Source: Acidobacteriota bacterium (lineage in GTDB: Bacteria; Acidobacteriota; UBA6911; RPQK01; CBDAPI01). From it: a stretch of 64,000 bases of DNA. The notes beneath the pieces are model-generated. The model searched no databases. It worked only from the letters and a program-made list of their open reading frames with translations, and was not told the origin of the DNA. The translations under genes and the position numbers were made by a program. The DNA lies in contig CBDCBX010000020.1 in assembly GCA_965214465.1 (NCBI GenBank), positions 554,363 through 618,362 of the forward strand, given 5' to 3'. Of the stretch, positions 11,411-16,398 are shown piece after piece (the first letter of the stretch is position 1; each line of letters starts with the position of its first letter).

Positions 11411-11477
11411 CCCCAACCCCGCCCCGAAAAAGGGGCGAACACTAAAGCCGGGGCTTCCCCGCCCCGGCTTTTTCTTT
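11411..11477 (+). terminator. two-hairpin terminator-like repeat unit, copy 2 (group II intron insertion site)
   Basis: Same unit as 10151-10214. Hairpin 11447-11468, T-run 11469-11477. The intron 5' end GTGCG starts at 11478. Confidence 0.55.
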
Positions 11478-11886
11478 GTGCGCCCGGCAGGGCGCACCCA
11501 TTTGGAGATGAAAGTTCTCTACGAACCCGACAGGGGGAATCGTTAGCCGGACGGCAAGGGTGTCCATCGCGAGGTGGAATCTGAAGGAAGCCGCAGGCAA
11601 AGCGCTGGCCTGACGAACAGGAATCGCATATGAGGCGGACGTGCTGGATGAGAAGGCAAATATCTTCAAAGTCCAATACCTGTACGGAAAGCACGGACGT
11701 AGATGCGGCGGGCATAAGCGTGAAGGTGGGTGCGCATTACCCGGGGAGGTCTGCCAGTAGGCCATAGTGCTACTGTCGTCGAGAGGCGGCGGGATGAACT
11801 GGTAGAAGTCAGCCGAGGGCATATTACCTCCATCGACCGGAGGGAAGGCCCGAACGCGAAGAAACGGAAAGGAGACTCGAATTTCG

Positions 11887-12599
11887 ATGACGAGAGGAGA
11901 CGCAGACAGGAAGGCTGAGAAGCCTGAAACCTGTCCAGGAGGTAGCCGACGGAAGCGGCGAGGGACTGGGCGAGGTGCGTCAAACGTCACGGTAAAGAGA
12001 GAGAACTCCAGTCCGGAAGCGATGCATCTGATGGAAGCAGTGGTCGAACGCGAGAACATGCTGGTAGCTCTCAAGCGGGTAGAGGCCAACGGCGGCGCTG
12101 CGGGAGTCGATGAGATGACCGTAGAAGAACTGAGGCCCTATCTGAAGGAGCACTGGCCGCGGATCAAAGAGGAACTGCTGGAGGGACGGTACCAGCCACA
12201 GCCTGTGCGAAGGGTGGAAATCCCCAAACCAGGTGGGGGAAAGCGCCAGTTAGGCATTCCCACGGTGGTGGACCGGCTGATTCAGCAGGCGCTGCATCAG
12301 GTTCTGACGCCGATCTTTGACCCGGACTTCTCGGAGTCAAGCTACGGCTTTCGCCCTGGCCGAAGTGCCCACCAGGCCGTGCAGCAAGCACGAGCTTACG
12401 TGGTGCAAAGCAAGCGGTGGGTCGTAGATCTGGACTTGGAGAAGTTCTTCGACCGAGTCAACCACGACATTTTAATGTCGCGGGTAGCGAGGAAGGTCAA
12501 GGATAAGCGGATTCTCAGACTGATTCGCCGCTATCTGCAGGCCGGCATGATGACCGGTGGCGTGGTATCGGCGCGCCGCGAGGGGATGCTGCGTATTCC
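11887..12599 (+). pseudogene. group II intron reverse transcriptase-maturase, N-terminal part (split by IS21 insertion)
   Basis: [30 protein letters not shown] ... RWVVDLDLEKFFDRVNHD (RT domains 0-2). Reading frame is broken at 12599/12600 by the IS. Confidence 0.8.
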
Positions 12600-12810
12600 G
12601 GGCCAAACCGGCCACTGATTCCGATTGAAACCGGCCACCTGTTCCGGGCCAATCCGGCCGGTGATTCCGGGGCAAAGTAGGCCACTTTGCCGGGCTTTTC
12701 CGGAATCGGTGGTCAGGTTAGCGGAAAGTTCCTGCCCTCAGGAGTTTGCGACGCTGGGCAACGCGGACTATCGTTGCTCCTTTTTCACTTAGAGAGGAAG
12801 AGGAGAACAG

Positions 12811-14373
12811 ATGGCCAATCGGAGGCTGCCCATGCGCAAGATCAAGGAGATTCTCAGACTACATTTTCAGGCCCACTTGTCAGCTCGCCAGATCGCTCGC
12901 AGCTGCTCGGTGTCTCGGGCTACCGTGGGTGATTACCTGAGCCGGACCCGGGCCGCCCAGCTCGACTGGAAACAGGTGGCCCAGATGAGCGAGGTCGAGC
13001 TGGAAGGACAGCTTTTTTCTCCTCCGGCTCCTCGGGGCCGCCACCGCTCTCCACCGGACTTTGCCTACGTTCACCGAGAGCTGCGGGCCAAGTCAGTCAC
13101 GCTGCAGTTGCTCTGGCAGGAGTACAAACAGGGTCATCCGGACGGCTACCAGTACTCGCAGTTTTGCGATCTGTACAACCGCTGGAGAGGAAAGCTCGAC
13201 GTGGTGCTGCGGCAAAACCACCGGGCCGGCGAGAAGATGTTCGTCGACTATGCCGGCCAGACGGTCGAGATTGTCGATCCCAAGACCGGTGAGATGCGTC
13301 AAGCCAACATCTTCGTGGCCGTCTTGGCGGCCAGTAACTACACCTATGCCGAAGCTACCGAAAGCCAGGATCTTGAATCCTGGATCGGAGCTCACGTGCG
13401 GGCCGTGGAGTTTTACGGTGGCACTACCCGGGTGGTGATCCCGGATAACACCCGCACGGCTGTCTCTCAGGCTTGCTTTTACGAGCCACAGATCAACCCC
13501 AGCTACGCCGAGTGGGCAGCCCATTATTCAGTGGCAGTCATCCCGGCCCGGGTGCGGGCTCCTCGGGACAAGGGGAAAGTCGAATCGGCCGTTTTGATCG
13601 TCGAGCGCTGGATCCTGGCCGCCCTGCGCAAGCGACGCTTCTTCAGCCTGGGTGAGCTCAATGCAGCCATCCACGAACTGCTTGGAGAACTCAACCGCCG
13701 GCCTTTCCGCAAACTTGAGGGCAATCGCCTCGAGCTCTTCCGGCGTCTGGATCAGCCCGCTCTCAGACCCTTACCCAGGATCCGTTATCAGCTGGCTCGC
13801 TGGAAGAAAGCCCGCGTCAACATCGACTACCACGTCGAGTTCGAGCGCCACTACTACAGCGTCCCCTATGCTCTGGTCCGTCAGCAGGTCGAGATCCGTT
13901 ACACCCAACACATCGTGGAGATCCTGCACCGGGGCCAGCGGGTGGCCTCGCATCGTCGCAACCGCGTGTCAGGAGCCGCCTCTACCTGCTCCGAGCACCG
14001 TCCACAGTGTCACCGCCGTTATCTGGAGTGGTCTCCTTCGCGGCTGATCTCCTGGGCTGCCAAGATCGGACCCCACTGTGGTGATCTGGTCGAGAAGATG
14101 CTCGCCTCTCGCCGCTATCCGGAACAGGCCTACCGCAGCTGCCTGGGACTGTTGCGGTTGGGCAAGACCTTCGGCGAGGATCGCCTGGAGGCCGCCTGCC
14201 GGCGGGCCCTGGCCTTCTCCACCTTCTCCTACCAGAGCGTCAAGTCCATTCTCAAGACAGGTCTGGACTCCCAACCATTACCCGAGACCCAACCACCACA
14301 ACCGGCTCTGGAACACTCGAACCTGCGCGGAGCCGACTACTTCACTTGTGAGGAAAACTTCCATGCTCATTAA
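12811..14373 (+). CDS. istA: IS21-family transposase
   Basis: 520 aa. N-terminal HTH (RQIARSCSVSRATVGDYL) then DDE core. Overlaps istB at the ATGCTCATTAA start/stop. Confidence 0.85.
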   Translation: MANRRLPMRKIKEILRLHFQAHLSARQIARSCSVSRATVGDYLSRTRAAQLDWKQVAQMSEVELEGQLFSPPAPRGRHRSPPDFAYVHRELRAKSVTLQLLWQEYKQGHPDGYQYSQFCDLYNRWRGKLDVVLRQNHRAGEKMFVDYAGQTVEIVDPKTGEMRQANIFVAVLAASNYTYAEATESQDLESWIGAHVRAVEFYGGTTRVVIPDNTRTAVSQACFYEPQINPSYAEWAAHYSVAVIPARVRAPRDKGKVESAVLIVERWILAALRKRRFFSLGELNAAIHELLGELNRRPFRKLEGNRLELFRRLDQPALRPLPRIRYQLARWKKARVNIDYHVEFERHYYSVPYALVRQQVEIRYTQHIVEILHRGQRVASHRRNRVSGAASTCSEHRPQCHRRYLEWSPSRLISWAAKIGPHCGDLVEKMLASRRYPEQAYRSCLGLLRLGKTFGEDRLEAACRRALAFSTFSYQSVKSILKTGLDSQPLPETQPPQPALEHSNLRGADYFTCEENFHAH

Positions 14374-15106: not shown

Positions 15107-15421
15107 AGGCAAAAAGGCTATGGAAACTGCCGCCCTGTGCAAACCCATTCAGCGCTTTGCAGATCTGCTCAGGATTCCCGCACGTGGGTTCTCACAGGGC
15201 TTGGAAAACTCCTCGCTGCGCTCGGCAGTTTCCCACAGTTCCCACCGCCTCTACGACTACTTCACACACATCTTTATCGGAGGTTTCTTGAATGCCAATC
15301 GATCCAAGCTACATTGACTCAAAACGGCCACCTGGCACATCATGAAATCCCCAGCGTCGCTTCGCTCCGACCGGGTGGCCACTTTCCCCGGATTGGGTGG
15401 CCGGTTTCACCGGAATACGCA

Positions 15422-16174
15422 GATGCCGCAAGGCGGTCCTCTCTCTCCCGTGCTCTCCAATGTGCTACTGGATGAGCTGGACAAGGAACTGGAGAGGCGA
15501 GAACATGCTTTCTGCCGCTATGCTGATGATTGCAATGTCTATGTGCGGTCGCAGCGAGCCGGTGAGCGTTGGTCTCGTTGACACAGTTTCTGGAGAAGCG
15601 CCTCAAGCTGAGAGTCAACACTGCCAAAAGTGCAGTGGATCGCCCGTGGAGGCGAAAGTTCTTGGGTTATTCGATGACGGCGCACCGGGAAACTCGGCTG
15701 AAAGTGGCCGCTAGCTCAGTGCAACGTCTGAAGAAACGGCTCAAGGTGGCTTTTCGTCAAGGAAGGGGACGCAACCGGCAACGATTCATCGAAGAACTCC
15801 AGCCTCTGCTGCGCGGATGGGTACAATACTTCAAGCTGGCAGAGGTGAAAGGGACCTTTGAGGAATTGGACGGCTGGATTCGGCGGCATTTGCGCTGTCT
15901 GATCTGGCGTCAATGGAAACGAACCTGGACCCGGGCCAAGAACCTGAGGGCGCGGGGCCTGACGGAAAAACGTGCATGGAAGTCCGCGACCAACGGACGG
16001 GGTCCCTGGTGGAATGCCAGAGCCTCCCACATGCACGCAGCTTTTCCCAAGGCCTACTTTGATCGGTTGGGTCTCGTGTCGCTGCTGACGGAGCAGCGTC
16101 GGTTTCAGCGTTTTTCGCGAACCGCCGTGGTACGGAACCGTATGCCCGGTGGTGTGGGAGGACGGCAGGGGTGA
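15422..16174 (+). pseudogene. group II intron reverse transcriptase-maturase, C-terminal part (RT motif YADD plus maturase X domain)
   Basis: ...PQGGPLSPVLSNVLLDELD...FCRYADDCNVYV then a maturase-like region (GWVQYFKLAE...). Splicing out the IS restores ...ARREGMPQGGPLSP.... Confidence 0.8.
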
Positions 16175-16189
16175 CCCTGCCTCCTACCC
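16156..16189 (+). ncRNA. group II intron domain V (34-nt hairpin with GNRA tetraloop)
   Basis: GGGAGGACGGCAGGG-GUGA-CCCUGCCUCCUACCC: 14-bp stem, 3'-strand bulge, GUGA tetraloop. The IEP stop codon TGA (16172-16174) lies in the loop. Confidence 0.45.
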
Positions 16190-16398
16190 GATCCCTTCCA
16201 ACCACCGAATCGGCCCGCAAGGCCGTGAGGAAACAGTACTCGCCAGAGCACAACGCTTGTTTCCGGCCCGGGGTTTCTGTATTACCTTTGGAAGGCGTAA
16301 GCTGACATGGTGACCCATCGCTTCATCCTAAGCTGGAACTCTGAAACCAGGAGGCATGGTTCAAGGGGTGCGATAGGCGTAATCCAGACAGAAAAGGC

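Follow-up and report, generated by a model that had tools for sequence, protein, structure and literature searches.

A 64,000-nucleotide stretch of an Acidobacteriota bacterium genome (contig CBDCBX010000020.1 of assembly GCA_965214465.1, positions 554,363 to 618,362 of the forward strand; hereafter, the window) very probably carries three elements nested in one another, namely, the hairpin of a short intergenic repeat, a class C (IIC) group II intron seated directly behind that hairpin, and an insertion sequence (IS) of the IS21 family within the intron, which is thereby dead as an autonomous retroelement (Table 1). In the proposed course of events, an intergenic 107-nt repeat in an Acidobacteriota-like genome would have offered a terminator-like stem-loop with a T-run behind it, and the intron would have retro-inserted 6 nt past the stem by retrohoming, the stem-loop and a 3-bp pairing of exon-binding site 1 (EBS1) with intron-binding site 1 (IBS1; AAA/TTT) being recognized in the manner of other IIC introns. 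The IS21-family element would afterward have transposed into the open reading frame (ORF) of intron domain IV (DIV), duplicating the target GATGC. A separate 4-nt deletion at ∼15563/15564 frameshifts the ORF independently of the IS.

The intron is 4715 bp long as found and 1878 bp long without the IS and one copy of its target site duplication (TSD), with GUGCG, in accordance with the group II consensus GUGYG, at its 5′ terminus and ...CCUACCCGAU at its 3′ terminus. The reference for these boundaries was a 95%-identical intron without the IS, located at 1431-5338 of ERZ28763718 ctg125560 (L001), which encodes an intact intron-encoded protein (IEP) of 439 aa. Similarity to L001 covers 11477-11823, 11826-12589, and 15422-16192 and then ends (DNA alignment), and ...GGUGGUGUGGGAGG...CCUACCCGAU is likewise followed by unrelated DNA in ∼55 related introns from species-representative genomes. 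The alignment to an unoccupied copy of the target site continues through the junction, and the hairpin at 16211-16225 is therefore flanking repeat DNA. By these three independent tests (L001, ∼55 relatives, and the empty site), the 3′ end of the intron is at 16192, 44 nt short of the position 16236 given in the original prediction, which had wrongly included the flanking hairpin. Foldable ribozyme domains had also been predicted between 11478 and 11886, and two Rfam families of group II D1-D4 match there at full length and far over their gathering scores, RF02001 at 11563-11734 (152 bits) and RF01998 at 11770-11850 (63 bits). The window agrees with the intron family at 117 of the 121 columns of domains I to III (DI-DIII) whose invariance across 41 relatives is 95% or more, and two of the four deviating columns are common to the window and the intact-IEP copy L001.

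Domains V and VI (DV and DVI) were defined by comparative alignment with RNAalifold of 37 distinct related introns, in which 16 of the 28 DV/DVI base pairs undergo double compensatory changes. DV had been expected after 16156; it begins at 16121, inside the tail of the ORF, and contains a CGC triad (16123-16125), where IIA and IIB introns carry AGC, with a G.U pair at 16124/16150. It also has a 2-nt bulge and a distal stem of 3 bp that is capped by a GAAC loop. The bulged branch-point A of DVI is at 16186, and the intron ends 6 nt further. DV and part of DVI lie within the ORF tail, which stops at 16174; the IEP frame at 16121-16174 runs through DV into DVI, and its tail, ...RTAVVRNRMPGGVGGRQG, is present in many homologues, others stopping earlier. 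The conservation of this tail is probably owing to the RNA and not to a function of the peptide. Judged by sequence, the ribozyme parts (DI-DIII, DV, DVI, the branch-point A, and the two splice sites) appear essentially undamaged.

The intron is assigned to class C on the combined basis of protein profile, ranking against solved structures, and ribozyme features, and every IIC hallmark that was tested is present, in keeping with the original prediction of a class C intron behind a terminator-like hairpin. In class C introns, the IBS1-EBS1 pairing comprises 3-4 bp, EBS2/IBS2 is lacking, and a stem-loop stands at the IBS2 position of the 5′ exon. A stem-loop was found at that position in the window (terminator scan and fold), and the EBS1 loop pairs with IBS1 over its three bases. 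Full 3-bp EBS1-IBS1 complementarity occurs at 40 of 43 distinct related sites and involves 18 pair combinations, including GUG/CAC, UGC/GCA, UCG/CGA, and GAU/AUC; among 2000 shuffles, the number of complementary sites averaged 9.8 and reached a maximum of 19. The class is further marked by CGC instead of AGC in the basal stem of DV, by a distal stem that is 2 bp shorter, and, in the epsilon-prime region, by an 11-nt bulge of its own in which AGGAA is conserved (Toor et al., 2006, PMC1702495), and its defining features have also been listed elsewhere (Zimmerly and Semper, 2015, PMC4424553). Both the CGC triad and the short 3-bp distal stem that class C requires are found in the DV of the window, and the bulge, AUCUGAAGGAA, aligns in RF02001 with 11 consensus positions that are unpaired.

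Similarly, the IEP rebuilt without the IS is RT (reverse transcriptase)-like across the junction, as had been predicted, and matches TIGR04416 'group II intron reverse transcriptase/maturase' with 435 bits (cut-off 300). Its Pfam matches are RVT_1 and GIIM alone, with no HNH endonuclease (En) domain. Its best solved relative in the PDB is the GsI-IIC RT (6AR1), matched over its full length with 533 bits, followed by the group II intron RT/maturase 7UIM (357 bits) and the RT-domain chains 5HHJ/5HHL (286-289 bits), which are presumably IIC proteins too, and then by the IIB protein TeI4h (6ME0; 141 bits) and the IIA protein LtrA (137 bits).

As the original prediction had it, the intron sequence GTGCG (11478-11482) begins directly after the T-run TTTTTCTTT (11469-11477) of a GC-rich hairpin, which is borne out by the sequence, the fold, and the Rfam matches. 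The hairpin (11444-11471) has an 11-bp stem and a 6-nt loop, lies 6 nt from the intron 5′ end, and folds with a ΔG of -22.3 kcal/mol (z = -4.8; 0/200 dinucleotide shuffles equally stable). Introns of class C insert past intrinsic-terminator motifs and not at a long sequence-specific homing site. Class C is the commonest class in bacteria, and insertion after terminators has been described as its 'hiding' strategy (PMC7306698). Among 44 distinct related sites, 43 lie a few nucleotides after a GC-rich hairpin and T-run, with flanks that are otherwise unrelated; the sole exception is the second of two tandem introns in a Pyrinomonadaceae metagenome-assembled genome (MAG; L002), which directly follows the DVI hairpin of the intron upstream.

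The target hairpin is the second of three separate hairpins into which the 107-nt repeat folds. The repeat occurs as two direct copies in the 64-kb window and forms no array, with the intron in the second copy only, and the empty copy therein provides an unoccupied-site control; it is colinear with 11409-11477 joined to 16193-16232 after removal of 11478-16192, and the two copies have in common an identical 22-mer hairpin and an identical 18-mer, AATCGGCCCGCAAGGCCG (10231-10248 in the empty copy). From its sequence, the repeat is a candidate for an element resembling repetitive extragenic palindromes (REP) or miniature inverted-repeat transposable elements (MITE), or for a terminator module. 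The two copies bracket a vapBC-like toxin-antitoxin pair (10328-10985, - strand) to which the intron is antisense. This is superficially like the cassettes of a chromosomal integron, and the intron could then be a member of the IIC-attC subgroup seated at an integron attC, or be of another class, or be next to the hairpin by chance. Any of these is extremely improbable, given the stem and T-run target that recurs throughout the family and the presence of all the tested IIC ribozyme and IEP hallmarks. The repeat itself was rejected as an attC site, as it has no R''/R' core (GTTRRRY) on either strand and its three hairpins do not form one long imperfect palindrome, and an attC array was rejected on the two copies in 64 kb. 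From the start of vapB to the filled repeat, ∼420 nt (10986-11408) hold no convincing ORF and no Rfam match; this segment might encode a small RNA that terminates at the + strand hairpin and T-run.

Three observations weigh against the explanation as set out so far. The Rfam model of DV/DVI, RF00029, gave no match over 11300-16500 even at E ≤ 1. In addition, two substitutions that only the window lineage has, 11501 C>T and 11508 G>A, fall on positions at least 95% invariant, and the integrity of the ribozyme is therefore not certain. Finally, no gene that clearly precedes the target hairpin on the + strand is in the ORF list, so that 'terminator' denotes the shape of this hairpin and not its function.

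The IEP carries two lesions, the first of which is the IS, inserted in the domain IV ORF just 5′ of RT motif 4. When 12590-15426 is removed, the ORF rejoins as ...ARREGMPQGGPLSP... (longer stretch, ...GVVSARREGMPQGGPLSPVLSNVLLDELD...), and Met at 12022 corresponds to the start of most IEP homologues. The original prediction had announced this restoration to ...ARREGMPQGGPLSP... upon excision in silico, which holds for the reading frame; excision from 12600, where it had placed the left end of the IS, leaves 10 IS bases behind, since the actual left end is at 12590. The second lesion is a deletion of 4 nt between 15563 and 15564, where L001 reads GCCGGT[GAGA]GAG (DNA alignment). As a result, the frame after ...YVRSQRAGER enters WSR* and stops at 15579-15581, the maturase frame continuing to 16174 (three-frame translation), and the IEP homologues at this point read ...RAGERV[LM]ASLTQFLEKRL... 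(protein alignment). With the IEP broken twice, by the IS and by the frameshift, autonomous mobility is therefore excluded by inference, and the intron would be unable to make its own RT/maturase. The original prediction that the intron is dead as a retroelement thus stands to this extent, and its view of the IS as the only lesion does not.

The interrupting element is a complete IS of the IS21 family, as originally predicted, with both genes intact. Members of this family encode IstA and IstB, end in TG...CA inverted repeats with subterminal transposase-binding repeats, and duplicate 4-8 bp of target. In the window, IstA matches NF033546 'IS21 family transposase' with 293 bits (cut-off 160) and the Pfam families rve and Mu-transpos_C_2, and IstB matches NF038214 'IS21-like element helper ATPase IstB' with 241 bits (cut-off 200) and PF01695 with 241 bits; the istB ATG (14363) overlaps the istA stop codon (14371-14373). 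The terminal repeats, TGCGTATTCCGG and CCGGAATACGCA, are perfect over 12 nt and of the TG...CA type, the complementary arms returned by the repeat finder being 12589-12601 and 15410-15422. Three 23-nt subterminal direct repeats occupy 12595-12663, with inverted counterparts at 15387-15409, and the right end is noncoding for an unusually long ∼315 nt (15107-15421). The window segments on either side of the IS overlap on L001 by exactly 5 nt, GATGC (4564-4568), and as L001 is uninterrupted, the GATGC target duplication is therefore proven. IstA is ∼58% identical to its nearest annotated homologues, plasmid-borne proteins named 'IS21 family transposase', and the element is therefore an unnamed member of the family. 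Exact-sequence look-ups with the window IstA, IstB, and the 243-aa RT fragment returned no match, and the 64-kb window holds no further copy of the IS or the intron. A 520-aa ORF at 19924-21486, equal in length to IstA, was considered as a second IstA and rejected, being a sodium:solute symporter.

The insertion was found in at least five independently assembled genomes. Four sibling metagenome assemblies from other samples were reached via the flanking symporter and PIN proteins, and two of these (L084 and L086) have the architecture of the window, with flanks and intron halves 99.8-100% identical; their junctions, TSD, and 4-nt deletion are likewise those of the window, and the deletion is common to all four (L084-L087). 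The insertion and the frameshift are common to the siblings, and both therefore predate the divergence of these strains. The perfect inverted repeats, the perfect TSD, and the intact istA and istB are what a young insertion is expected to show, and the original prediction had taken the event to be so recent that every boundary was still exact, in an intron spanning 11478-16236 with an IS at 12600-15421 as its single lesion. This version of events is refuted as to the boundaries and the single lesion and is highly improbable as a whole, as it is contradicted by the intron 3′ end at 16192, by the IS start at 12590, by the additional 4-nt frameshift deletion, by the presence of insertion and deletion in assemblies from four other samples, and by two sibling assemblies in which istB is broken and the locus rearranged; a recent age of the IS insertion is not demonstrated by the sequences.

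In the rearranged siblings (L085 and L087), the right IS junction is as in the window and the left flank is foreign (...TTATGG-IS). The 5′ intron half of the L085 genome (L089) is located on the same 5.68-Mb contig (ERZ25074053 ctg471346; ∼2.58 Mb for L085 and ∼3.17 Mb for L089), ∼590 kb away and on the other strand, in the arrangement GATGC-IS-TTATGG. The sequence TTATGG is the target duplication of a second IS copy in the sibling genome, and the TSDs of L085 and L089 are reciprocally swapped (TTATGG-IS-GATGC and GATGC-IS-TTATGG), which indicates that two IS copies in inverted orientation recombined homologously and thereby inverted ∼590 kb. The IS copies of the inverted genomes (L085/L089 and L087) have a broken istB. 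At the orthologous site, the IS of the window differs by 0.5-5% from those of L084, L085, L086, L087, and L089, as against at most 0.2% in the flanks; the differences are patchy or clustered and mostly synonymous, affecting 11 of 520 IstA residues, and the assemblies do not all have the same number of 23-nt subterminal repeats (one extra copy). This divergence may reflect either gene conversion among IS paralogues or noise of assembly and repeat polishing.

The patchy differences, with the IS 95-96% identical between assemblies and the flanks 99.8-100% identical, would also fit reads from mixed IS copies, as expected if the nesting were a metagenome assembly chimera in which a repeated IS had been mis-joined or a consensus IS pasted in. 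Such a chimera accounts poorly for a precise 5-bp TSD that is present as a single copy in the uninterrupted L001, for identical junctions in three independent assemblies (the window, L084, and L086), or for the exchange of TTATGG and GATGC in the inverted genomes. This exchange is a signature of biological recombination, by which an assembly chimera is therefore ruled out as the source of the nesting, and the artifact must be considered a very remote prospect.

Another reading of the nested elements is that the intron is crippled and not dead, in that its RNA, with the IS carried in DIV, still splices and maybe retromobilizes with a IIC maturase supplied in trans. This is unlikely, though it deserves more weight than the other alternatives. 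It is consistent with the retention of DV, DVI, the branch-point A, EBS1/IBS1, and nearly all near-invariant DI-DIII columns, and with the tolerance of large insertions by domain IV, which is the usual site where group II introns accommodate them. In addition, L001, with its intact IEP (P0001), comes from the same metagenome sample as L087; the link is by sample only, however, and does not place L001 in the same genome. The reading is further weakened by the two private substitutions at near-invariant ribozyme positions and by the single copy of the intron in the window. The intron lies behind a terminator, so that little transcription is expected, and with non-coding exons on both sides, splicing would be of no evident use; moreover, the two halves are ∼590 kb apart in two sibling genomes with no apparent harm. 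Loss of autonomous mobility with both IEP lesions is accordingly the favored reading of the intron. In the split siblings, the 5′ ribozyme half is apparently intact, as is the DV-DVI half, and the two are on opposite strands. The IS in domain IV may thus have provided a handle for recombination, and the DIV-split halves could conceivably reassemble and trans-splice if both were transcribed and a paralogous IIC maturase were present, a very improbable outcome. If true, trans-splicing at this locus would capture, in a bacterium, a stage on the proposed route to organellar trans-splicing introns and, by analogy, to fragmented spliceosomal RNAs.

Table 1. Features of the nested locus, in positions of the window.
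Feature	Position	Strand	Basis and remarks
Empty paralogous copy of 107-nt repeat	10150..10256	+	Unoccupied-site control
5′ exon	11409..11477	+	First 69 nt of 107-nt repeat; sequence, terminator scan, fold, paralogous copy
Hairpin 1 of filled repeat	11420-11425 / 11432-11437	+	Inside 5′ exon
Terminator-like hairpin 2 of filled repeat	11444-11454 / 11461-11471	+	Terminator scan, fold
IBS1 = TTT	11475-11477	+	IBS1 covariation
Group IIC intron, whole (assigned)	11478..16192	+	L001 similarity limits, ∼55 relatives, empty-site alignment
Domains I-III and 5′ side of IV	11478..11886	+	RF02001, RF01998, family columns
IIC-specific 11-nt bulge	11579-11589	+	11 unpaired RF02001 consensus positions
EBS1 loop AAA	11658-11660	+	Pairs with IBS1
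IEP N-terminal part, RT motifs 0-3	11887..12589	+	ORF list, Pfam RVT_1, TIGR04416, alignment P0001-P0020
TSD, left copy GATGC	12585..12589	+	Single in L001 at 4564-4568
IS21-family IS, 2832 bp	12590..15421	+ (intron orientation)	Repeat finder
Left inverted repeat (IRL)	12590-12601		Repeat finder
istA, DDE transposase, 520 aa, intact	12811..14373	+	NF033546, Pfam
istB, AAA+ helper ATPase, 247 aa, intact	14363..15106	+	NF038214, PF01695
Right inverted repeat (IRR)	15410-15421		Repeat finder
TSD, right copy GATGC	15422..15426	+	Sequence; L001 comparison
IEP C-terminal part	15427..16174	+	RT motif 4 PQGGPLSP, YADD, X/maturase; translation, alignments
Domain V	16121..16153	+	RNAalifold on 37 relatives; single-sequence fold z -4.6
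Domain VI	16155..16190	+	Compensatory changes in most DVI pairs; fold
3′ exon	16193..16232	+	Last 40 nt of 107-nt repeat; alignment to empty copy
Hairpin 3 of filled repeat	CGGCC 16211-16215 / GGCCG 16221-16225	+	Inside 3′ exon; fold

The intron resembles B.h.I1 of Bacillus halodurans, O.i.I1 of Oceanobacillus iheyensis, and GsI-IIC of Geobacillus stearothermophilus in having a terminator-like stem-loop upstream and a 3-bp EBS1-IBS1 pairing, and it also shares with these IIC introns the CGC triad, the short DV, the 11-nt bulge with AGGAA, an En-less IEP of ∼420-440 aa, and a length of ∼1.9 kb (PMC1702495; PMC4424553; PMC7306698). Unlike these introns, the window copy is non-autonomous, with an IS21-family element in its RT domain and a 4-nt frameshift, and its target hairpin belongs to a repeated three-hairpin element. 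The IS in turn is like other members of the IS21 family in its istA followed by an overlapping istB, its TG...CA inverted repeats, its subterminal repeats, its 5-bp TSD, and its length of 2.8 kb, and it differs in the low identity of its IstA to the nearest annotated plasmid-borne transposases of the family (∼58%) and in its long noncoding right end. Among named MAGs, the intron has its closest relatives in Pyrinomonadaceae and Syntrophobacteraceae, at only ∼75% protein identity.

Element-within-element arrangements in a selectively neutral niche are also seen in nested or inactivated bacterial group II introns such as twintrons, tandem IIC arrays, and fragmented copies. Bacterial twintrons have been described as lying between genes and leaving those of the host unaffected (PMC4424553), and fragmented or interrupted bacterial introns are reportedly common (in part, PMC4424553 and PMC3522654). 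In contrast to twintrons, the inner element in the window is a DNA transposon and so is not removable at the RNA level. Both kinds of arrangement occur among the relatives of the intron. L001 holds a nested second IIC-like intron (453-aa RT; 5′ GTGTGCG, 3′ ...CCGACCCGAC) at the equivalent of window position 11823/11826, so that L001 is a bacterial twintron. In L002, related introns stand in direct tandem (954-2840 and 2841 onward); the second copy starts right after CCUACCCGAU, the preceding GAU mismatches its EBS1 (AAA), and the first copy, through its DVI hairpin, may have supplied the target stem-loop of the second. The sibling loci L085/L089 and L087, split in domain IV with halves ∼590 kb apart, are like the DIV-fragmented trans-splicing introns of organelles and unlike them in that the exons are non-coding and the split is known from sequence alone; the window intron is contiguous.

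A housekeeping protease in the window has named relatives that are all Acidobacteriota, with ∼52-56% identity, and a tRNA scan of the 64-kb window returned none. At 18072-19848, a 528-aa ORF (18150-19736, - strand) with an rve integrase core, annotated with Y4rL_C in a sibling, is flanked by ∼52-nt inverted repeats (18072-18123 / 19848-19797, 91%); this segment, which lies only 2 kb away from the intron, probably represents a further insertion sequence. Other short intergenic repeats in the window comprise one of 148 nt at 22021-22168 / 27001-27148 (92%), an inverted 64-nt pair at 37986-38048 / 48484-48421 (94%), which is also present in L001 at 8316-8374, and an identical 43-nt pair at 26891-26933 / 43226-43268. 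The genome seems rich in small repeat families.

The locus is an ordinary nesting of known element types, consisting of a new copy of a IIC intron and a new IS21-family member, and the current understanding of group II introns and of IS21 is unchanged by it. Its relevance is mainly to annotation. The output of gene callers here is four unrelated ORFs (fragments with RVT_1 and with GIIM, and between them IstA and IstB), in a place that actually holds one dead IIC intron and one apparently intact IS21-family element, with both genes full-length, in an intergenic repeat. The locus also provides a worked example of IIC site choice by stem-loop and 3-bp EBS1-IBS1 pairing, backed by dozens of related introns and by an unoccupied control site within the window. 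The one outcome that is somewhat out of the ordinary is the natural splitting of the intron in DIV through IS-IS inversion in the sibling strains, and the ∼590-kb inversion there indicates that elements nested in 'safe' terminator niches can still reshape chromosomes.

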